Source: Cylindrospermopsis raciborskii Cr2010 (GTDB lineage Bacteria > Cyanobacteriota > Cyanobacteriia > Cyanobacteriales > Nostocaceae). Taken from it: DNA of 32,000 nt. The DNA lies in the NCBI RefSeq assembly GCF_003367075.2, contig NZ_CP065936.1:150001-182000 (forward strand), given 5' to 3'. Both the position numbers and the translations under genes were made by a program. Positions 1 through 28,784 of the stretch are shown in pieces. Position 1 is the first letter of the stretch. Every line of letters begins with the position of its first letter. The notes beneath the pieces were generated by a model. That model saw only the letters and a program-made list of their open reading frames with translations, did no database searches and was not told the DNA's origin.

Positions 1-56
1 CTGCTGCCTATATTACTGGACAAGTATTTAACGTGGATGGGGGTATGGTAATTTAA
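1..56 (+). CDS. 3' end of a short-chain dehydrogenase/reductase (FabG-like) gene, cut by the window edge
   Basis: Frame 3 reads AAYITGQVFNVDGGMVI then stop at 54-56. The ITGQ..VDGG tail is the typical SDR C-terminus. Confidence 0.6.
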   Translation, partial: AAYITGQVFNVDGGMVI

Positions 57-122
57 AATTCAGAAGATAGGGCCTGCGTCATAGCAAGCCCAAATTGAGT
101 AATAGGATTCATGGATACCCAA

Positions 123-1205
123 TCAAGAGTTACTATGAACCCGTGGAATTAAAGTAGAGGACATAAATAAAACAATAGCGGATGCGGAAGCAAAAATTAC
201 AGGTAAAGTCATAGCTTGTATAGACATAGCTAAAATATTAAAGAACAAGGTTAATGACCATAATATCAAGCTAGCGCGTCGTTGAGAAAAACCCCAAGCC
301 AATAGACGATGATGTAAATGATCCTTACCAGGAGTACTGAGAGGGTTTTTTCCTGCTAGGAGGCGTTTAATAAAAACCTGGGTAGTATCTAAAACTGGCA
401 ACATCAAAAACAAAACCGTTGGTATAAGAGAATAAATGGTACTTTCCTGTAATTTACCTAATATACTTGTAGCAGCTAGCACATAACCTAAAAAATAGGC
501 TCCAGCATCACCCATAATAATGCGGGAGGGGTAAAAGTTGTGGCGTAAAAAGCCAAGAGCTGCCCCCGACAGTGCAGCCAATACCAGAGTTGCTGCGGCT
601 CGATTATCAAACTGGGCAGAGACCCCCAACAAACTCATGGCAGTAATAAAACTAATGCCACCAGCTAAACCATCCATACCGTCCATGAGATTAACGGCAT
701 TGGTAATGCCAACTATCCATAAAACAGTGAGAGCTGTAGACAAAAAGGAATCAATAGGAGTACCAAACATCACCTTGATACTCATACCATTAGCCACCAA
801 TAACAGGGCAGTAATAATTTGTGTCCATAACCGAATAAATGGAGGCAGACCAAACTGGTCGTCTATAAACCCAACCAAAACAAGAATAGATCCACCCAAA
901 AGAATTGTGAGAACCTGGGCTAAAACCCCCTGGAGTTCGATAGGTCGGAAAAGACTGGCAAAGACCACAGCAGCAATTACGCCGGCATAGATAGCCAGGC
1001 CTCCCGCATTGGGTAAAGGTTCCCGATTGAGTCGTCGGGCATTAGGTTGGTCAGCCCAACCGACCCGGAGGGCAAATTGACGAACAGTGGGAATTGAACC
1101 CCAGGTTATGAGCCAAGCCAAAATAAAAGTAAATACCACTGCTAACCAGCCGGTGCCACTAGGGTTAGCAATACCAAGAGCCTTAAGAGAGTTGTCTATA
1201 TTCAT
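123..1205 (-). CDS. Glycosyltransferase family 4 polyprenyl-phosphate sugar-1-phosphate transferase (WecA/TagO-like, MraY superfamily)
   Basis: 360-aa polytopic membrane ORF. Motifs NAVNLMDGMDGLAGG and DQPNARRLNREPLPNAGGLAIY fit the WecA-type signature better than the MraY one. Confidence 0.85.
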   Translation of the reverse strand: MNIDNSLKALGIANPSGTGWLAVVFTFILAWLITWGSIPTVRQFALRVGWADQPNARRLNREPLPNAGGLAIYAGVIAAVVFASLFRPIELQGVLAQVLTILLGGSILVLVGFIDDQFGLPPFIRLWTQIITALLLVANGMSIKVMFGTPIDSFLSTALTVLWIVGITNAVNLMDGMDGLAGGISFITAMSLLGVSAQFDNRAAATLVLAALSGAALGFLRHNFYPSRIIMGDAGAYFLGYVLAATSILGKLQESTIYSLIPTVLFLMLPVLDTTQVFIKRLLAGKNPLSTPGKDHLHHRLLAWGFSQRRASLILWSLTLFFNILAMSIQAMTLPVIFASASAIVLFMSSTLIPRVHSNS

Positions 1206-1375
1206 TTCCCCCCATAACCATAACCATTAGTTTGCCAGACCAGTACCAACTGTAATAGTATAGCCTTAGCCAAAACGCTCAGGACAAAGTTGATCGGTAA
1301 AAGTGAGTGCCAGATAGGCGTTCTGGCTTACCTCCCACAGCTGCACCCATTTTTGGTAACTATTTGCTAAATTGA

Positions 1376-3133
<1,758 letters not shown>

Positions 3134-5189: not shown

Positions 5190-5568
5190 GGGAGAGAGTA
5201 GACGTAGGTGGTTGCAGATTGGTGATTAACACCGGTTTGAGGAAAGTCCGGGCTCCCGAAAGACCAAACTTGCTGGATAACGTCCAGTACGAGCGATCGT
5301 GAGGAAAGTGCCACAGAAAAATACCGCCAGTTTTCAGAATGCTAATTCTAGAGTTGGTAAGGGTGCAAAGGTGCGGTAAGAGCGCACCAGCAGTATCGAG
5401 AGGTACTGGCTCGGTAAACCCCGGTTGGGAGCAAGGCCAGAGAAACTATGGTTGGTCTTTTACCAGTTTCGGCAAATTAGAGCCGCTTGAGGTAGTTGGT
5501 AACAACTATCCCAGACAGATAACTACCCTCGCAAGAGAACAGAACCCGGCTTATGTGCTGCTCTCTCT
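5190..5568 (+). ncRNA. rnpB: RNase P RNA, bacterial type A
   Basis: Universal blocks are present: GAGGAAAGTCCGGGCTCC (P4 5' strand), ACAGAAAATACCGCC, GGTAAGGGTGCAAAGGTGCGGTAAGAGCGCACC, GGTAAACCCCGGTTGGGAGCAAGGC and ACAGAACCCGGCTTA (P4 3' strand). P1 pairs GAGAGAGTAG (5192-5201) with CTGCTCTCTC (5558-5567). The ends are approximate. Confidence 0.92.
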
Positions 5569-5599
5569 TTTTTAAAACTTGTAATTCTATTTTTTACTA

Positions 5600-6316
5600 A
5601 TGTCCCGCGTTTACCCTCGCCGTCAACGGCAACTTGAAAGTTTAATCCAAAAGTTGGGATTATCAGCAAATAGTCCTATTAAGTGGCCACTGCTGGACTT
5701 GGCACTTACTCACCCTACTGTTTCTGAATCGGCAAATTATGAACAGCTAGAATTCGTCGGTGATGCTGTTGTTCGTTTAGTAGCAGCTGTTGTCCTGTGG
5801 GAAAGCTATCCTGATTGCTGTGTGGGTGACTTTGCTGCTATCCGTTCCGTTCTAGTGAGCGATCGCATTCTTGCTAGATTAGCCAGGGAGTATGGTTTAG
5901 AATTATATTTGTTAGTGGCAGGTAGTGCCACAGCGGATAATGTTGGGCAGGAGTCTCGTTTAGCAGACGCATTTGAAGCATTATTAGGTGCTCTTTATCT
6001 TAGTACCCAGAATTTAATCCTAATTCGTCCTTGGTTGGATCCTCATTTTCAGGAACTAGCAGAGCAAATTCGTTTAGATCCAGCTAAGCTAAATTATAAA
6101 GCTGCTCTACAAGAATGGACTCAAGCGGGATATAAGGTGTTACCGGAATATCGGGTCGTGGAAGTTAATCAACCCCAGAATCCCCATGAACGTTTTTTGG
6201 CCCAGGTTTGGTTACATGAGAAAATTCTCGGACAGGGGAAAGGAAGATCAATCAAAGCAGCTGAACAAGAAGCAGCTAAGGTAGCCTATTTAGCAATTAC
6301 TCAAAGCGTTACTTGA
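5600..6316 (+). CDS. rnc: Ribonuclease III
   Basis: RNase III signature EQLEFVGDAVVRL, a second acidic cluster DAFEALLGALY, and a C-terminal dsRBD (KAALQEW...GKGRSIKAAEQEAAKVAY). Confidence 0.93.
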   Translation: MSRVYPRRQRQLESLIQKLGLSANSPIKWPLLDLALTHPTVSESANYEQLEFVGDAVVRLVAAVVLWESYPDCCVGDFAAIRSVLVSDRILARLAREYGLELYLLVAGSATADNVGQESRLADAFEALLGALYLSTQNLILIRPWLDPHFQELAEQIRLDPAKLNYKAALQEWTQAGYKVLPEYRVVEVNQPQNPHERFLAQVWLHEKILGQGKGRSIKAAEQEAAKVAYLAITQSVT

Positions 6317-6389: not shown

Positions 6390-7166
6390 ATGACGGGTAA
6401 CCCCCCTGCAATCAATCCGAAAGAGATTAGGTCTCTAAGTGAGTTTGTCAGACTGAAAGCTCCAGCCATATTTATTATGGATGCCCATCCAGACTTAGTG
6501 AAAGAAATCCAATCACTACTCAAAATAGATCCAGATGGTTTAGTTGGACCAGTGACTAAACAAGTATTCTCAGAATTTAAAACATTAAATCAATTACAAT
6601 ACCCATTAGGTTTAGGCATAGGTACTGCTCAGGAACTACTAGAATTAAAAGACAAAGAAGAAACAGAAGCGATCAGAGAAGACCTGATTAAATTAGACCT
6701 AAAAGTTAATCCAGATGCAGGTTCTCCCACTGGTCGTAGCATGACCTTACCCGATGGTAAAATAGTTTATGCCAACCAGTATATAGTTGAGGGTATACCC
6801 TTAACTTGGGGAGAAGCAACCAAAGACTGTACTCGTGTTCCTACTAGTGCGGAATATGTAGCCAATGCCATCCGAGTGGCAAAAACCTGGGGGCCAGTGA
6901 GGGAGAAATTTGGCTCACCCATCAGAATTACATCCGGGTATCGCCCACCTGCAGTTAATAGTTCCGTAGGTGGTGCGCGTAATAGTCAGCATCTTTACTT
7001 TCGTGCCATAGATATGATTCCCATGAATGGAGACTTCAAGAAACTGTGGGAGGTCTTAAAGTCTTCCAATTTTTCCGGGTTGGGAGATGCGGTCTTTATG
7101 GGGAAAAACAAGGGGTTTTTTCACGCTGATGTAAGACCCGGTGGTAGGGTAATCTTCCCCTATTAA
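6390..7166 (+). CDS. Peptidoglycan-binding domain plus peptidase M15A-type (LAS family) zinc D,D- or L,D-peptidase
   Basis: PG_binding_1-like segment (IQSLLKIDPDGLVGPVTKQVF). Zinc ligand pattern H-x6-D (SQHLYFRAID) and a distal H (FFHADV), preceded by ITSGYRPPAVN. I see no N-terminal signal peptide. Confidence 0.8.
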   Translation: MTGNPPAINPKEIRSLSEFVRLKAPAIFIMDAHPDLVKEIQSLLKIDPDGLVGPVTKQVFSEFKTLNQLQYPLGLGIGTAQELLELKDKEETEAIREDLIKLDLKVNPDAGSPTGRSMTLPDGKIVYANQYIVEGIPLTWGEATKDCTRVPTSAEYVANAIRVAKTWGPVREKFGSPIRITSGYRPPAVNSSVGGARNSQHLYFRAIDMIPMNGDFKKLWEVLKSSNFSGLGDAVFMGKNKGFFHADVRPGGRVIFPY

Positions 7167-7272: not shown

Positions 7273-7335
7273 TTCGTTCCTCAGCTCAACCTACGTTCAT
7301 CTTGTGTTTAATTACACTCACCCACTTAAATTATC
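7273..7335 (-). repeat. Dispersed hairpin-repeat family, copy A (5' part only, hairpin arm degenerate)
   Basis: The reverse complement, gataatttaagtgggtgagtgtaattaaacacaagatgaacgtaggttgagctgaggaacgaa, matches copy C (21225-21282) with a few substitutions. The AACCCAAC arm and the CCCCCATGGG tail are missing. Confidence 0.7.
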
Positions 7336-7618
7336 CTTTTAGAATCTCATTTACAGTTAACTTCACCTCAGAAAACAAAGGGGAAAAAATCACCTCATCA
7401 CCCGTAAAAACCTGCTCCTCATATAAACCTTCCAGCCACTCCAAAACAGTCACCTTTTGTGCCATCGGATCGACAATCCAATATTCATTAATACCCCGTG
7501 CTGCATACTCAGAACGCTTGTAACGATAATCTCGCTTTTCTTGATTAGGACTTACCACTTCAATCACCAATAAAGGATGGGGCATATCCATTTTTACTAT
7601 TTTAACAACTGATGTCAC
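7331..7618 (-). pseudogene. Uma2-family (DUF820) PD-(D/E)xK endonuclease remnant, C-terminal half only
   Basis: The 95-aa frame with LLVIEVVSPNQEKRDYRYKRSEYAARGINEYWIVDP matches the (D/E)xK half of Uma2 proteins, which as I recall run about 180-200 aa. It has a GTG start and an in-frame stop immediately upstream, and no N-terminal half in any frame. Confidence 0.65.
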
Positions 7619-7993
7619 GATCTATTTTTGTTCAACTTTTACTCAACAAGCATCAATTATAACCTATGCAAACTTGGAAAGGTCAAGTATCGTTACAAAA
7701 ATTCGTGAACTACAAGAATAAGGTATGCGCATTGCACTCGTGCACTACTTCTATTCCTTTCTTATGGGTGGCTGTCTGATGCGATCGCATGTAGATGATG
7801 AAGTTCGTTCCCCAATCCAAACTACATTATCCTCTCCATTGCTGTTGCACTACCAACTAAACTATACTGGAACGTGCTGGATTAATCGTTCAAAACCGCA
7901 TTTGTCGCTTTTAACTATCACAACTTGCTATTCCCGATTTAATATCAATCTAATTTTAGTGGAATCAACAGGATTTTCCCGGAGACCAACACC

Positions 7994-10900
7994 ATGAATG
8001 ATCTAGAAAATATTCCCAATCATCACTATGAACCGATCAAAACTATCCTACGAGTAATTGATTTTTCCCAAAGTCAATTTTCCCTGATTTTTTTGCACTG
8101 TAATGATGCTGAATTACGCGAACAAGTAGCAGCGCAATTGCGGGAAAGATCGCCCAACAAAATTGAGGAGATTACTCTACCTCATTCCGCCATAAGTCTC
8201 TATGATAATATATCCCTAACGTTGGATAGACATCCAGAAGTTTTGATGGTCTTTGGACTGGAGACTGTTAACAACCTGGACTCTATCTTACAGTTCTCCA
8301 ACCAAATTAGAGAAGAATTTAGAAAAAACTTTACCTTTCCCCTATTGATTTGGATAGATGATCAAATACTGAGAAAAATTTTGAGAGTTGCACCAGATTT
8401 AGAAACTTGGGGTAGTATTATTGGCACACCTAATTACTACAATGGAGAAAACCAAGTGAAAAGTTTGGCTCAAATTCACAGGTTTTTGGCAGAAGCGGCT
8501 TTAGAAAATCAACAATGGTCAGAAGCTAAAAAGCAGGCACAGTATGCACAAGAAATCTTAACCAGTGTTGACCACATAATTTTACCAGATGATGGTTTAT
8601 ATCACTTGTTGATTGCTCGTTCCCAAATTGGTTTAGGAGAAACTAGCACGGCTATTAAAAATTTAGAAATCGCTAAAACTCATAGTGCGCCTCCCCAGGA
8701 TCCCCAACTCTACATTGAGATTTTAAAAACTTTGGCCAGTTTATACTTTGATCACGGTAATTATTTAGAGGCGTTCTATGTTAGACAAGAGCAACTACAA
8801 GTTGAACAACAGTATGGGTTAAGAGCATTCCTGGGATCATCCTATTTAAATCCCCAACGCCCAATCATGAACGGGACTAATGGTTCCAATGGTCGTTCTA
8901 TGGCATTTGGTAGGGAAGAAGATATCAAAAGGTTATGGCAAAGAATATCAGACAATGAACATCCATTAGTCGTGATTCACGGACAATTTGCAGTGGGTAA
9001 AACCTCAATTATTCAGGGGGGACTAGTTCCTATTCTGGAACAGGAACTTATTGATGATAGACAGCTGTTACCTATTATTCTGCGGGAGTACACAAACTGG
9101 TTAGAAGAATTATGGGAGCAATTATTAAATAAACTAGAGAACAAGTTACAATCAACTATAGCCATAGAAACATTTAATGGATTATCTCCACAGGAGAGAA
9201 TTATTAAACTATTAAACATCAGTGGCGATAAAAATTTATTAACGGTTTTGATATTTGACCAACTTGAAGAATTTTTCTTTGTTGCCAATAACCTAGAGCA
9301 AAAAAGAACATTTTATCAATTGTTACGCTCTTGCCTAGATATTCCATTTGTTAAAATTATCCTTACCCTGCGGGAGGAATACTTACATTACTTACTGGAG
9401 ATAGATAGACTAGTAGATTTAAGAGTTACTAATAATAACATTCTTGACAAAACTATTCGTTACTACTTGGGTAACTTCTCTAAAGCAGTGGCTAAGAGGA
9501 TTATTCAAACTCTAATGGTCAAAGACCAATTTGAGTTACAGATGGAATTAATTGACCAATTAGTTGAAGAGTTGGGGGACAATTTAGGAGAGGTTAGACC
9601 CCTAGAACTACAAATTGTTGGTGCACAATTAGAAAAGGAGGGAATTGATACTTTAGAGCAATATGAACAATTTGGTGGTAAACAGAAACTACTAGAAAAA
9701 TTCTTGCAGGATGTGATTAAAAGTTGTGGACCTGAGAATGAGTCAACAGCTCAATTGGTTTTATACTTGCTCACAGGGGAAAATGGAACTAAACCCTTGA
9801 AAACTCAAGCGGAAATAATAACACAGTTGTCAGTGGAAAGTGATAAACTAGATTTGGTTTTGAAGATTTTCGTTGGTTCAGGTTTAGTATGGCTAGTGCG
9901 AGAATCACTGAGGGATAGATATCAACTGGTTCACGACTGTTTAGTGCAGTTTATTCGTTATCAGTATGCACGTTCATATTATACTCAGTTATCAGCACAA
10001 TTAGAGAGAATTCAAGCAGAGCTTAGACAAGAAAGGGAAGCTGAAGAACAAGCTCAGCTGGTAACTAAGCTGGAAGAAGATGCACTAATTGCTTTAGACC
10101 AGTTTCAAACTGACCCTCTACTATCCCTGGTTACTGCTGTGGGTAATGCTAACTTATTAAAATCCATAGTTCAAAACAATCCTCTGGATAAGTACCCAAC
10201 CGTTCGTCCCATTTATACATTAAATACTATTCTTGACACCATCAGCGATCGCAACATCATCAAAGGTCATGAAGGTGGAATTACAAGTGTCTGTTTTAGT
10301 CCCGATGGACAAAGTATAGGGACTGGTTCCTGGGACAAAACAATTCGGTTATGGAATTTGCGGGGTGAAAACATCCAGCAGTTTCGTGGTCATGAAGGTG
10401 GAATTACAAGTGTTTGTTTTAGTCCCGATGGACAAAGTATAGGGACTGGTTCTGAGGATGGAACAGCTCGGTTATGGAATTTGCAGGGGAAAAACATCCA
10501 ACAGTTCCGTGGTCATGAAGGTGGAGTCACAAGTATCTGTTTTAGTCCAGATGGACAAAGTATAGGGACTGGTTCTGAGGATGGAACAGCTCGGTTATGG
10601 AATTTGCAGGGGAAAAACATCCAACAGTTCCGTGGTCATGAAGGTGGAGTCACAAGTATCTGTTTTAGTCCAGACGGACAAAGTATAGGAACTGGTTCTG
10701 AGGATGGAACAGCTCGGTTATGGAATTTGCAGGGGGAAAACATCCAGCAATTTCATGGTCATGAGGACTGGGTTACAAGTGTGAGTTTTAGTCCCGATGG
10801 TCAAATCCTAGCTACCACCTCTGTGGACAAAACAGTTAGATTATGGAACTTGCAGGGAGAAACCATTCAACAATTTCATGGTCACGAGAACTGGGTCACC

Positions 10901-12019
10901 AGTGTGAGTTTCAGTCCCGATGGTAAAACCATCGCTACCACCTCTGTGGACAAAACAGCTAGATTATGGAACTTGCAGGGAGAAACCATTCAACAATTTC
11001 ATGGTCACGAGAACTGGGTCACCAGTGTGAGTTTCAGTCCCGATGGTAAAACCATCGCTACCACCTCTGTGGACAAAACAGCTCGGTTGTGGGGGTTAAA
11101 TAGACACAAAATTCAGGAGATTAGAGGTCATGAAGATTGGGTTACCAGTGTGAGTTTTAGCCCAGATGGTCAAAATATTGCAACTGGTTCCCGAGACAAC
11201 ACAGCTCGGTTGTGGAACTGGGAAGGTCGTCTGATTCAAGAATTTAAAGGTCATCAAAGTCGAGTCACAAGTGTTAATTTCAGCCCAGATGGACAAACCA
11301 TAGGGACTGGTTCTGCTGATAAAACAGCTCGGTTGTGGAATTTGCAGGGTGATATCCTTGGAGAATTTCAGGGTCATGAGGACTGGGTTACAAGTGTCAG
11401 TTTCAGTCCCAATGGCCAAATCCTAGCTACTGGTTCCCGGGACAAAATAGCCAGGTTATGGAGCTTGCAGGGTGACCTCCTTGGAGAATTTCTAGGTCAT
11501 GAGGACTGGGTTACAAGTGTCAGTTTCAGTCCCAATGGCCAAGCTCTAGCTACTGGTAGTGCTGACAAAATAGCTAGGTTATGGAACTTGCAGGGTGACC
11601 TCCTTGGAAAATTTCCAGGTCATGAGGGTGGGGTTACAAGTGTGAGTTTCAGTCCCGATGGCCAAACTGTTGTTACCGGTTCAGTTGACAAAATAGCTCG
11701 TTTATGGAATTTAAAGGGTTATCTGATTCGGGAATTCAAGGGTCATGATAGTGGGATAACAAATGTGAGTTTCAGTCCTGATGGACAAACTCTCGCTACC
11801 GCTTCTGTTGATAAGACAGTCCGGTTATGGGACTTAAAGGGTCAGCTAATTCAAGAGTTTAAGGGTTATGATGATACAGTTACAAGTGTGAGTTTTAGCC
11901 CAGATGGCCAAACTCTTGCTACTGGTTCTTTGGATAAAATAGCCCGCTTATGGCCTGTACGGTATTTAGATAGAGCGTTGAAAGATGGCAACACTTGGTT
12001 AATTGATACTAATTTTTGA
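7994..12019 (+). CDS. STAND-class (NLR-like) P-loop NTPase with an N-terminal uncharacterised module, TPR-like helices and 14 C-terminal WD40 repeats
   Basis: Walker [10 protein letters not shown] (nt 8981-9007) and Walker [13 protein letters not shown] (nt 9236-9271). A coiled-coil segment [20 protein letters not shown] is followed by 14 units of [27 protein letters not shown] lies 9 nt upstream of the ATG. Confidence 0.9.
10265..11986 (+). repeat. In-frame tandem array of 14 x 123-bp (41-aa) WD40 units with very high internal nucleotide identity
   Basis: The period is exactly 123 nt (GGTCAT at 10265, 10388, 10511, 10634 ...). 10838-10960 is identical to 10961-11083. 10427-10551 is identical to 10550-10674. 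Confidence 0.95.
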
Positions 12020-13061
12020 TGATCCCCCCACCTAATACCTTATCTCCCTCATACCAAACTGCTGCTTGTCCAGGTGTGATGCTGAATTGGGGTTCATCAA
12101 ATACCAGTTGTACACAGTCGGTTTCCCCAGGGATAATTGTTGCCAGTACAGGTTGAGAACGGTAACGTATTTGCACTTCCCCACGAATAGTACCTCTGGG
12201 TTCTGCCATGGATACCCAGTTTACTCGCTCAACCGTACACTCTTTCTCTGTACCTTTCGTGCGATCGCCTACTACGACAAGATTATTAACTGTGTCTAAC
12301 TTTATGACATATAGTGGTTCAGCTGCGGCAATTCCTAAGCCTTTGCGCTGTCCTATAGTGTAATGGTGAACACCATCATGCTTGCCTAAAATTTTGCCGT
12401 TACTGTCCACAATATCACCAGGTTTAGGAGCTAAATATTTGTCTAGAAATGCCCGCATGGAACCATTGCTCTCTACTAAGCATAAGTCCTGGCTCTCGGG
12501 TTTATCGGCGGTTTTTAAGCCATATTCGGCGGCAATTTTACGAGTATCATTTTTATTTAACTCTCCCAGGGGAAAGATAGTACCTGCTAGTAGTTCTTGG
12601 GATAAATCATATAAAAAGTAGGATTGATCTTTGTTGCGGTCAAAGGCACGTAGTAACTGATAACGTTCAGTCCCATGGTCGTAAGCAATTCGGGCATAAT
12701 GACCAGTAGCAATAACATCAGATCCCAGTTTTTCTCTTGCATATTCTAACATGGGACCAAATTTCACAGTTCTGTTACATTGGGAACAGGGTAAGGGGGT
12801 GATTCCCGCGCTGTAACCGGAAACCAGATAATCCACAATGTTAGTTTGGAACACATCCCGCATATCAACAATTTCATGGGGAATACTTAGTTGTTGGCAA
12901 ATAGTAGCTGCATCCACCATACCCTCGGAGCAGCACTGACCCTTCCCTTTCATTAACCAAAGGGTCAAACCAATGACATCATAGCCCTGATTGTGTAGAA
13001 TGGCCGCTGCTACGGAACTGTCAACGCCACCAGAAAGACCAACAACAACTTTTTTCATCAT
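12009..13061 (-). CDS. mnmA: tRNA-specific 2-thiouridylase MnmA
   Basis: [20 protein letters not shown]-loop, catalytic Cys context ([10 protein letters not shown]), 350 aa. Its 3' end overlaps the convergent WD40 gene by 11 nt. Confidence 0.95.
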
Positions 13062-14084: not shown

Positions 14085-15671
14085 ATGAATAACCAGGATT
14101 TGAAGCATCTAAAGGAAATATTTGTTGTCACTGCTGCTCAGATGCGGGATGTGGAATCAAGAGTTTTCGCCGCAGGAATGCCCATTCCAGCTTTGATGGA
14201 AAAAGTAGGTAGGCTCATTTGCGATCGCCTTTTATCTATGACATTAAAAGGTTCTAGGGTTGGTATTTTAGCTGGGCCTGGTCATAATGGTGGTGATGCT
14301 TTGGTGGTGGGAAGGGAATTACATTTTCGTGGTTATAATGTTTGGATTTATCAACCTTTTGGTCAACTCAAGGAGTTAACTAACCAACATTTTCACTATG
14401 CTCAAAGTTTAGGAATTCCTTGTTTTTCTCAACTAGCTGAATTGCCAGATTGTGATTTTTTAATTGATGGGTTATTTGGCTTTGGTTTAGAAAGAGAAAT
14501 CACTGGCAACATTGCTGAGGCTATTAATCATCTTAATCTGTGGAACAAACCAATTTTTAGTATTGATTTACCTTCGGGAATACACACCGATACGGGAGCG
14601 GTTTTAGGAACTGCTATTTGTGCTTCCCACACTTTTTGTTTGGGTTTGTGGAAACAGGGTTTATTACAAGAACAAGCAATAAAATATGCAGGAAAAACAG
14701 AGTTAGTTGATTTTGATATTCCTCTGGCTGATATTCAGGCAGTTTTGGGGGAAGTTCCCACCATCAAACGCATTACCCAAAGTCTAGTAATTAATACTTT
14801 ACCCCTACCTCTTTCTCCCATCGTGCATAAATATAAATCTGGACATCTGTTACTAATTTGTGGCTCTAAACGCTATGCAGGGGGAGCAATTTTAACTGGT
14901 TTAGGTGCTAGAGCATCTGGGATTGGCATGTTATCTATTGCCGTGCCAGAAAGTATTAAACCTTTATTAGTTTCCCACTTACCAGAAGCTCTCATTATTG
15001 GTTGTCCAGAAACAAATAATGGAGCAATTTCCCATTTACAATTGCCTGGAGAAACCACTTTAAATTCCTTTACTGTTATTGCGTGTGGACCTGGATTAAC
15101 TACAGAAGCAACTCCTATTGTGGAGCAAGTAATAAAAAGTGAAGTTCCCATAATTCTGGATGCAGATGCTCTCAATATTCTAGCACAATTGGGCACAATT
15201 ACCACTTTAAAAAACCGCCATCAACCTACTATTCTCACTCCCCATGGAGGAGAGTTTCATCGCCTATTTCCTGAGATTGATATCACAAATAGAGTCAAAG
15301 GAGTGCAAACAGCAGCATCACAAACTAGAGCCATAGTTCTATTAAAAGGAGCAAGAACTGCGATCGCTAAACATCAGGGAGTTACTTGGATAAACTCTGA
15401 AAGTACACCAGCTTTAGCTCGGGGTGGGAGTGGTGATGTATTAACTGGACTAATGGGGGGGATTTTAGGACAGGTGGTTAACAGACAAGTTAATATGGAG
15501 GATGTGGTAGCAACAGCAGCTTGGTGGCACTCTCAAGCTGGTATTTTGGCAGCAAAGGAGAGAACGGAGTTAGGAGTTGATGCTTTTACCTTGACCCAGT
15601 ATTTAAACAGAGTTTTGGCTCAAATCCAAACTGATGAGATAAGTAAGTGGGTGGAATTAAATATAAGATGA
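14085..15671 (+). CDS. nnr: Bifunctional NAD(P)H-hydrate repair enzyme (epimerase plus ADP-dependent dehydratase)
   Basis: YjeF-N domain (GPGHNGGDALVVGREL) followed by a carbohydrate-kinase-like domain (GGSGDVLTGLMGG). The last roughly 11 codons and the stop lie inside repeat copy B. Confidence 0.92.
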   Translation: MNNQDLKHLKEIFVVTAAQMRDVESRVFAAGMPIPALMEKVGRLICDRLLSMTLKGSRVGILAGPGHNGGDALVVGRELHFRGYNVWIYQPFGQLKELTNQHFHYAQSLGIPCFSQLAELPDCDFLIDGLFGFGLEREITGNIAEAINHLNLWNKPIFSIDLPSGIHTDTGAVLGTAICASHTFCLGLWKQGLLQEQAIKYAGKTELVDFDIPLADIQAVLGEVPTIKRITQSLVINTLPLPLSPIVHKYKSGHLLLICGSKRYAGGAILTGLGARASGIGMLSIAVPESIKPLLVSHLPEALIIGCPETNNGAISHLQLPGETTLNSFTVIACGPGLTTEATPIVEQVIKSEVPIILDADALNILAQLGTITTLKNRHQPTILTPHGGEFHRLFPEIDITNRVKGVQTAASQTRAIVLLKGARTAIAKHQGVTWINSESTPALARGGSGDVLTGLMGGILGQVVNRQVNMEDVVATAAWWHSQAGILAAKERTELGVDAFTLTQYLNRVLAQIQTDEISKWVELNIR

Positions 15672-15713
15672 ACGTAGGTTGGGTTGAAGTATGAAACCCA
15701 ACACCCCCATGGG
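15638..15713 (+). repeat. Dispersed hairpin-repeat family, copy B
   Basis: gataagtaagtgggtggaattaaatataagatgaacgtaGGTTGGGTTgaagtatgaAACCCAACacccccatggg has an 8-bp stem GTTGGGTT/AACCCAAC. Over about 66 aligned nt it differs from copy C by 6 substitutions and one 4-nt indel. Confidence 0.8.
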
Positions 15714-15725
15714 TCTCGGATAAAA

Positions 15726-21177: not shown

Positions 21178-21300
21178 GATAAGTAAGTTGGCGTTAAAAA
21201 ACCAAACTATGTAAAGATAAATAGGATAAGTGGGTGAGTGGAATTAAACACAAGATGAACGTAGGTTGGGTTGAGGAACGAAACCCAACGCCCCCATGGG
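21178..21300 (+). repeat. Dispersed hairpin-repeat family, copy C (longest copy)
   Basis: The core at 21227-21300, taagtgggtgagtggaattaaacacaagatgaacgtaGGTTGGGTTgaggaacgaAACCCAACgcccccatggg, contains the 8-bp stem GTTGGGTT/AACCCAAC. The 11-mer gataagtaagt at 21178-21188 also begins copy B, which suggests a longer unit with an internal deletion in B. Confidence 0.75.
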
Positions 21301-21331
21301 CATCCTACAAATAATTGTGCCTCCCTACTTA

Positions 21332-28710: not shown

Positions 28711-28784
28711 TGGCTCAGGTCGGATTCGAACCAACGACCCCAGGCTTATGAGTCCCGTGCTCTAACCTACTGAGCTACTGAGCC
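28711..28784 (-). tRNA. Elongator tRNA-Met (anticodon CAU), no encoded CCA
   Basis: The minus strand reads GGCTCAGTAGCTCAGTAGGTTAGAGCACGGGACTCATAAGCCTGGGGTCGTTGGTTCGAATCCGACCTGAGCCA. It folds as a cloverleaf with G1-C72 and is close to E. coli metT outside the anticodon stem, although tRNA-Ile2(CAU) is not formally excluded. The anticodon stem ends in an A31/G39 mismatch. Confidence 0.88.

Follow-up and report, generated by a model that had tools for sequence, protein, structure and literature searches.

Genomes of the Nostocales are rich in STAND NTPases that carry WD40 arrays (PMC5587647, PMC9218822). Among them, Npun_R6612 of Nostoc punctiforme is a STAND ATPase with a 14-blade WRAP domain that forms two 7-bladed propellers, represented by PDB entry 2YMU (PMC5587647; Pereira & Lupas 2022, PMC9218822). 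The blade number of cyanobacterial WRAP proteins is labile, and Lupas and co-workers proposed these proteins as analogues of innate immunity (PMC9218822). The study that defined the nSTAND1 clade (PF20703) did so within systems of multicellular prokaryotes that are predicted to counter invaders, and it also ties KAP ATPases to phage immunity (Kaur, Iyer, Burroughs & Aravind 2021, PMC8195603). Here we analyse a gene for a 1341-amino-acid (aa) STAND-WD40 protein in a 32,000-nt stretch of the Cylindrospermopsis raciborskii Cr2010 genome (the window; all coordinates are window positions), which an earlier note on this DNA had read as a candidate single-gene immune sensor. The protein is a shortened member of a large filamentous-cyanobacterial subfamily in which the N-terminal half is constant and the C-terminal half varies. 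In other genera its gene follows that of a KAP-family ATPase, and in C. raciborskii this usual gene pair is present as two unlinked pieces that share an N-terminal module (N-mod).

The gene is complete and is the sole long frame of its region, the opposite strand being full of stops; it runs 11 nt into the 3' end of mnmA, which is convergent with it. Its product has five regions: the alpha/beta N-mod, three TPR-like hairpins, the nSTAND1 NTPase, a long helix and 14 WD40 units (Table 1). The alpha/beta module and TPR-like helices that the earlier note had placed at aa 1-145 and aa 150-285, and the NTPase core, coiled coil and WD40 units that it described, were all recovered, as was the STAND/NLR-like logic that it had drawn from them. 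An AlphaFold2 (AF2) model of aa 1-757, with a predicted local distance difference test score (pLDDT) of 78, shows in order the N-mod, the hairpins, a disordered linker, a five-stranded nucleotide-binding domain, a helical domain, a winged helix (the last three spanning aa 304-645) and further helices. The linker to the propellers begins with a 58-residue helix, and two more helices run on into the array.

Profile, motifs and fold all identify the protein as a STAND NTPase of the nSTAND1 clade. Once the repeats were removed, PF20703 matched aa 304-652 with E=2.1e-28 (100.5 bits, against a cut-off of 27.1); the other Pfam matches of the non-repeat part, to AAA_16, nSTAND6, nSTAND3 and NACHT (E=0.17), were below threshold, and a HET domain was absent from the same search. 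The nucleotide-binding oligomerisation domain (NOD) divides into a nucleotide-binding domain (aa 304-495), a helical domain (aa 497-576) and a winged helix (aa 580-645), and Foldseek matched it to ORC/Cdc6, Apaf-1, CED-4 and the plant resistosomes ZAR1 and NRC3 (E 2e-8 to 3e-6). Across 36 homologues, G330, V334 and G335 of the Walker A motif are invariant and K336 is nearly so, D422, Q423, E425 and E426 of the Walker B motif are invariant, and both motifs are kept in all eight C. raciborskii alleles examined. A PDB sequence search with aa 1-757 gave no match, and NCBIfam names neither the non-WD40 part nor the partner ATPase. The nearest proteins come from C. raciborskii (also named Raphidiopsis raciborskii), and an identical 1341-aa protein of this species is already in NCBI as "nSTAND1 domain-containing NTPase" or "WD40 domain-containing protein". 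The domain identity is therefore nothing new, and the protein as such is of an ordinary kind for filamentous cyanobacteria.

Apaf-1 and CED-4 share with this protein the fold formed by the nucleotide-binding, helical and winged-helix domains (3sfz, E=2.6e-8), and Apaf-1 also has a two-propeller WD40 sensor, the WD40 region of which is a sequence match as well. Unlike them, the window protein has no CARD, carries an alpha/beta module as its putative N-terminal adaptor, and belongs to the nSTAND1 clade rather than the AP-ATPase/NB-ARC clade.

A profile search with the N-mod retrieved 1577 representative proteins, 528 of them at E<=1e-30. Of the best 150 matches, nearly all have the N-mod at the N-terminus or close to it, and in each one that is 800 aa or longer, TPR and an nSTAND1 NTPase domain come next. 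The C-terminal half of the family varies: mostly it consists of 14-21 WD40 blades, and other members end in CHASE2 with transmembrane helices, TPR arrays, a Ser/Thr kinase, HisKA+HATPase_c, a dynamin-like GTPase, a second NACHT or pentapeptide repeats. Proteins of 1600-1700 aa are typical. Identity between the window N-mod and its counterparts in other genera is 48-63%, and the TPR region, in which homologues have PF13424 (TPR_12), is ~180 aa shorter in the C. raciborskii protein than in its other-genus homologues.

The earlier note had read the gene as a candidate single-gene sensor. Instead, in all seven non-Cylindrospermopsis loci that we inspected (Anabaena azotica, Trichormus variabilis, Anabaena sp. 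UHCC 0253, A. sphaerica, Nostoc, Coleofasciculus and Calothrix), the STAND gene is the second of a pair, with a gene for a ~433-aa KAP-family ATPase directly upstream on the same strand and sometimes overlapping it. The pairing spans the Nostocales and Coleofasciculus, and it spans three C-terminal variants too, the STAND protein ending in a kinase in Nostoc, in WD40 units in Coleofasciculus and in a His-kinase in Calothrix. The partner matches KAP_NTPase at 30.1 and 27.0 bits (cut-off 20), has the Walker A motif GHIGCGKST and is 70-95% identical across taxa, which makes it far more conserved than the STAND protein. Comparison of two match lists yielded 16 further STAND/partner pairs on one contig each, six of them on contigs shorter than 20 kb. 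The four closest homologues, from Anabaena and Trichormus, have a common context of a beta-lactamase-like gene, the KAP ATPase gene and the STAND gene, with NlpC/P60, GT2, MFS and MoaC genes downstream in two of the four; such an arrangement hardly resembles a mobile island. Genes for Uma2 and PemK are found repeatedly close to family members in relatives. Literature searches turned up no characterised Anabaena orthologue, nor, in the literature searched, to which subscription journals did not belong, any description of the KAP-ATPase/N-mod-nSTAND1 pairing or of its split state, and we claim no priority for either. As a defined pair, the conserved KAP ATPase and the N-mod-nSTAND1 protein offer a testable system for a family of obscure function.

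The N-mod itself gave no Pfam match in searches with aa 1-145 and aa 1-760. Its AF2 model (aa 1-150; 22 homologues) has a pLDDT of 83.8 and consists of five beta-alpha units, with the sequence HCND (family consensus RCNY) after strand 1, where a Walker A motif would lie, and a strand formed by LMVFGLE at the place of Walker B. Foldseek matches of this model in the PDB are mostly AAA+/P-loop ATPase cores (RAD17-RFC, RuvB, Hda, ORC, TnsC, NSF and the Avs4 NTPase); the best, 7z6h_K, has E=5e-4 and a TMq of 0.61 and is the sole match with E<=0.001, and identities are 7-18%. On this fold similarity alone, we read the N-mod as a catalytically dead, degenerate AAA+-like domain. The occurrence of the N-mod both in the STAND protein and in a separately encoded protein recalls the coupling principle set out for effector-associated domains by Kaur et al. 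2020 (PMC7159879).

That separately encoded protein is found in C. raciborskii. The partner ATPase gene is absent from the window and from the 8 kb on either side of the orthologous STAND gene in L001, one of the two C. raciborskii assemblies that we compared with the window (L001 and L090; GCA_002321945.1, GCA_002321935.1). The species does encode the partner, as P0357, which is 72% identical and falls in a cluster of 46 member sequences. In CENA303 (L086 9001-10777), P0357 (444 aa) is followed by, and through an 8-nt overlap translationally coupled to, an open reading frame (ORF) for a free-standing N-mod of 149 aa; this locus, between cbiMNQO and cupin/recQ genes, is unrelated to the STAND locus. 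The free N-mod is 60% identical to the window N-mod, and its gene is kept in C. raciborskii, R. brookii D9, R. curvata and a Cuspidothrix metagenome-assembled genome (29 cluster members). One 4.01-Mb contig carries both the free N-mod gene and a 1341-aa STAND allele. In a cyanobacterium that forms blooms, makes toxins and has a streamlined genome, such a split amounts to a natural experiment on whether the N-mod acts in trans.

Two observations concern phosphoenolpyruvate (PEP) carboxylase. In P0176, a member of the family, the nSTAND1 core is followed by a complete PEP carboxylase fused to it (PF00311, 982 bits), and in C. raciborskii a gene for PEP carboxylase (L086 1-841) is located ~8 kb from the KAP-ATPase locus. 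Either could be a coincidence, and the fusion could be one of gene calling.

The WD40 array is closest, among PDB entries, to 2YMU (E=4.7e-184), and Pfam finds 14 WD40 matches in it (E=1.4e-178). Dunin-Horkawicz et al. 2014 is reportedly the source for Npun_R6612 and 2YMU. Both proteins are Nostocales STAND NTPases with 14 C-terminal WD40 units of the same subfamily, tandem amplification of blades and a labile blade number; the likeness covers the WD40 domain alone, since 2YMU holds just that domain. The window blades, unlike those of Npun_R6612, are not near-identical: they are 56-96% identical to one another in DNA, with synonymous differences. The two also differ in that we found no coupled TIR-STAND gene in the window, the partner in relatives being the KAP-family ATPase.

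Units 1-4, units 5-7 and units 10-11 form similarity groups, and unit 6 (10880-11002) is a hybrid, the first 81 nt of which are identical to unit 7 and the last 42 nt of which match unit 5. Such a hybrid is the mark left by an in-register unequal crossover, the one that separates 14-unit from 13-unit alleles. Alleles in C. raciborskii have 14, 13, 12 or 11 units, always in the 41-aa register, with the differences confined to the first half of the array. Alleles of all four unit numbers are found on contigs longer than 3 Mb, and in two of these assemblies frameshift-type gene splits suggest long-read data, in which single reads would span the 1.7-kb array; the polymorphism is therefore probably real. 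It could mark strains and, if the protein senses phage or non-kin, could set strain-specific susceptibility.

Fungal HET-E, HET-D and NWD NLRs likewise combine a NOD with internally conserved WD40 repeats, the number of which varies among alleles via unequal recombination (cf. PMC10907252). They differ from the window protein in that its NOD is nSTAND1 rather than NACHT, a HET or death domain is lacking, and the units have no excess of non-synonymous change. Indeed, the ratio of non-synonymous to synonymous polymorphism (pN/pS) among similar units is 0.11-0.64, and since the differences are rich in synonymous change we find no sign of diversifying selection like that in fungal HET-E, in what is a small and crude test. 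The most variable unit positions include 4, 5, 23 and 41, on the top face, but also 17, 35 and 36, and alleles of the window gene differ mainly by unit count, not at hypervariable contact positions.

We propose that the protein is a ligand-gated nSTAND1 switch whose N-mods recruit the KAP-family ATPase, an account to which we give an even chance of being right. The 14 blades, probably folded into two 7-bladed propellers as in Npun_R6612 (2YMU), would bind a protein or peptide ligand, and binding would free the NOD, in which both Walker motifs are intact, for nucleotide exchange and oligomerisation. Oligomerisation would bring the N-mods into clusters, and these, serving as an adaptor rather than an enzyme, would engage the ~433-aa P-loop ATPase. 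In C. raciborskii the pair has come apart: the STAND-WD40 gene stands by itself between the Uma2 remnant and mnmA, and this ATPase is encoded in trans together with the free N-mod, which could bridge the two partners or compete. A bolder version, which we consider improbable, would make this an undescribed, lineage-wide two-component STAND system, in which the P-loop-less N-mod, through homotypic or heterotypic contacts, docks nSTAND1 proteins with variable sensors to the conserved KAP ATPase, the adaptor works in trans in C. raciborskii, and blade number tunes recognition of, for example, cyanophage or non-kin proteins.

Several points weigh against the proposed switch. The partner linkage comes from the seven inspected loci and the contig-sharing pairs. 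Functional coupling in C. raciborskii is conjecture because the two loci are unlinked. The assignment of the N-mod to AAA+ is one of fold, with TMq at or below 0.61 and identities of 7-18%, and the idea that the N-mod is a diverged copy of the partner ATPase domain or of the protein's own nucleotide-binding domain was rejected, as hhalign gave no signal (probability <1%). Alleles with 11-13 blades would be unable to close two 7-bladed propellers, which questions a strict structural model. In addition, the published contexts of nSTAND1 are mostly predicted conflict systems, KAP is linked to phage immunity (PMC8195603), and the polymorphism in WD40 repeat number recalls fungal NLRs.

The gene order corA-orf-rnc-M15-Uma2-STAND-mnmA-orf-yjeF is common to the window, L001 and L090. 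In one pairwise codon alignment of aa 1-757 between the window and L001, the rate of synonymous change (dS) is 0.185, against 0.135-0.183 in five neighbouring genes, and the ratio of non-synonymous to synonymous change (dN/dS) is 0.25 (0.19-0.36 per sub-domain), against 0.10-0.18 in the neighbours. A dS like that of the neighbours and a low dN/dS point to vertical descent under purifying selection that is somewhat relaxed. We rejected horizontal transfer or allelic replacement as the source of the low blastn identity (86%), which reflects misregistered repeats, the dS of the non-repeat part equalling that of the neighbours. Beyond the genus the picture is different: the mnmA-orf-yjeF side is retained in 80 Nostocales species, and in none of them does a homologue of STAND, rnc or M15 lie within 10 kb 3' of mnmA. 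The position of the STAND gene beside mnmA is thus specific to Cylindrospermopsis. The accessory status suggested in the earlier note is not supported, given the shared locus in the three assemblies and a dS that matches the neighbours.

As a rival reading, the gene could be an orphan without a role, decaying since genome reduction split off its partner, with the repeat variation a product of relaxed constraint. The missing partner, the shortened TPR region, the truncation of the neighbouring Uma2 gene, the misfit of 11-13 blades with two 7-bladed propellers and a dN/dS that is the highest of the local genes compared would all fit such a remnant. However, the 4-kb frame is intact, the Walker motifs are conserved in every allele, dN/dS at a dS of ~0.19 indicates purifying selection overall and in each sub-domain, the repeat units are likewise under constraint, and the partner and free N-mod are conserved in the species; we therefore regard decay as very unlikely. 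One apparent sign of it, a protein that lacks the first 130 aa (P0014), was set aside because its assembly also splits rnc, mnmA and yjeF, which makes indel errors likely. Each of these three genes is split into two ORFs in both L001 and L090, on megabase contigs, which suggests uncorrected indel errors, and truncated genes in these assemblies are not to be taken for pseudogenes.

The rival to which we give more weight than to decay, while still thinking it rather unlikely, is that the protein acts in conflict or innate immunity as a sensor like those of the Avs, NLR or HET-E type, the propellers of which would recognise a cyanophage or other non-self protein; oligomerisation would then lead to abortive infection or cell death, with the trans-encoded KAP ATPase or another factor as effector. 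The protein does have the tripartite logic of such sensors, the origin of its clade in counter-invader systems and the tie of KAP ATPases to phage immunity (PMC8195603) point the same way, and the variation between 11 and 14 units among strains, through unequal crossover, resembles both fungal HET-E/NWD proteins and the fast-turnover WRAP propellers (PMC9218822). The lack of synteny beyond the genus, the recurrence of Uma2 and PemK near family members and a dN/dS somewhat higher than that of the neighbours are also consistent with it. By contrast, Pfam searches with aa 1-760 and aa 1-145 found no effector domain (nuclease, TIR, protease, SIR2, pore-forming or other), the N-terminus being the P-loop-less AAA+-like module, and no effector gene is adjacent, the neighbours being rnc, the M15 peptidase gene, the Uma2 remnant and mnmA. 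In PADLOC, the full protein and its first 760 aa matched solely HEAT-ARM_XIII, driven by the WD40 units, and LeoA, on the P-loop only (E=6e-4); the partner ATPase gave merely weak PDC-S20 and mad8 matches, and the matches of a homologue were likewise weak and due to the WD40 units or the P-loop. The kinase, His-kinase and CHASE2 C-termini of the family are those of ordinary signalling, the differences between WD40 units are mostly synonymous, and synteny extends across the four Anabaena/Trichormus genomes. A 2026 survey of prokaryotic STAND proteins, using effector and context criteria, counted 198 of 589 clades as defence-associated (PMC13581612).

Members of the nSTAND1 clade resemble the window protein in their profile match, in coming from multicellular prokaryotes and in having a C-terminal repeat sensor, but the described systems use death-like or effector-associated-domain adaptors with caspase, TIR or trypsin effectors, whereas here the N-terminus is the P-loop-less AAA+-like module and no effector is linked. 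Avs proteins (e.g. Avs4, PDB 8DGF) and bacterial NACHT proteins share the tripartite layout, and the N-mod model has a weak likeness to the ATPase core of Avs4, one that many AAA+ cores share. Unlike them, the window protein has no N-terminal nuclease or other effector, senses with WD40 units rather than TPR-like repeats, has no PADLOC match and reaches NACHT only at the sub-threshold value given above; its gene also appears to be chromosomally fixed rather than part of a defence island. Given that there is neither an effector nor a defence model, that the neighbours are housekeeping genes, that synteny and vertical inheritance hold and that family C-termini are those of ordinary signalling, an immune role is possible but unsupported. 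The earlier note had named two findings that would tell against it, a strict housekeeping orthologue in all relatives and a failure to match STAND profiles; we saw neither, so the immune idea is weakened by our results rather than refuted. The evidence accords better with a signalling or cell-fate system that is fixed in the chromosome of the lineage than with a mobile antiphage gene.

The genes that flank the STAND gene are those named in the earlier note (Table 1), and the window's other identified genes are housekeeping: groEL, corA, an Nnr/YjeF gene, murJ, ccsB/resB, a DsbD-type gene, and genes for PFOR and an M23 peptidase. The start of the Uma2 gene was removed in the window by a ~333-bp deletion (corresponding to L001 7201-7533; compared over L001 6939-7508), and two further assemblies of C. 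raciborskii have the gene intact, with a product of 181-189 aa.

Table 1. Coordinates of the STAND-WD40 gene, the regions of its product and its neighbours in the window.
Feature	Position (nt)	Residues (aa)	Strand	Description
STAND-WD40 coding sequence	7994..12019	1-1341	+	Complete, 1341 aa + stop; nSTAND1-family STAND NTPase with WD40 array
N-mod	7994..8434	1-147	+	Five-stranded alpha/beta AAA+-like fold without P-loop
TPR-like helices	8444..8812	151-273	+	Six helices in three hairpins (AF2)
nSTAND1 NOD	8903..9949	304-652	+	Pfam PF20703, AF2, Foldseek
Walker A, GQFAVGKTS	8981..9007	330-338	+	Motif GxxxxGK[ST]
Walker B, LIFDQLEE	9248..9271	419-426	+	Motif hhhhD
Long helix/coiled-coil linker	9935..10261	648-756	+	AF2 helices at 648-705, 708-728 and 739-756
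14 WD40 units	10265..11986	758-1331	+	Each exactly 123 nt/41 aa
rnc	5600-6316			Neighbour of STAND gene
M15 peptidase	6390-7166			Neighbour of STAND gene
Uma2 remnant	7331-7618		-	95 codons, 5'-truncated
mnmA	12009-13061		-	Convergent with STAND gene

A 90-codon ORF at 7725-7997 (+) overlaps the STAND start codon (ATGA). We rejected it as an operon partner: it has no Pfam match, is uncalled in other strains and lies in a strain-divergent region, with its 3' part (~7791-7959) poorly conserved among strains. The segment probably belongs to the 5' leader or promoter and does not encode a protein.

The dispersed repeat that the earlier note had placed near the gene is real. Its intergenic copies, at 7273-7343 (inverted), 15625-15724 and 21225-21311, are 56-87 nt long and 76-95% identical, and they hold a GTTGGGTT...AACCCAAC hairpin; the repeat has no Rfam match at the gathering score and resembles a small element of the miniature inverted-repeat transposable element (MITE) or repetitive extragenic palindromic (REP) kind. 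A tandem repeat of 9/18 nt (TGGCATGGG) at 3070-3123, in the 3'-terminal part of ORF 1409-3133 for the chaperonin (Cpn60/groEL), probably encodes the Gly/Met-rich C-terminal tail typical of GroEL. Just 5' of rnc, the RNase P RNA gene rnpB lies at 5194-5569 (+) (Rfam RF00010, 259.8 bits), and the 78-codon ORF at 5339-5575 is spurious because it lies inside rnpB. A tRNA gene is located at 28711-28784 (-) (Rfam RF00005, 65.7 bits).

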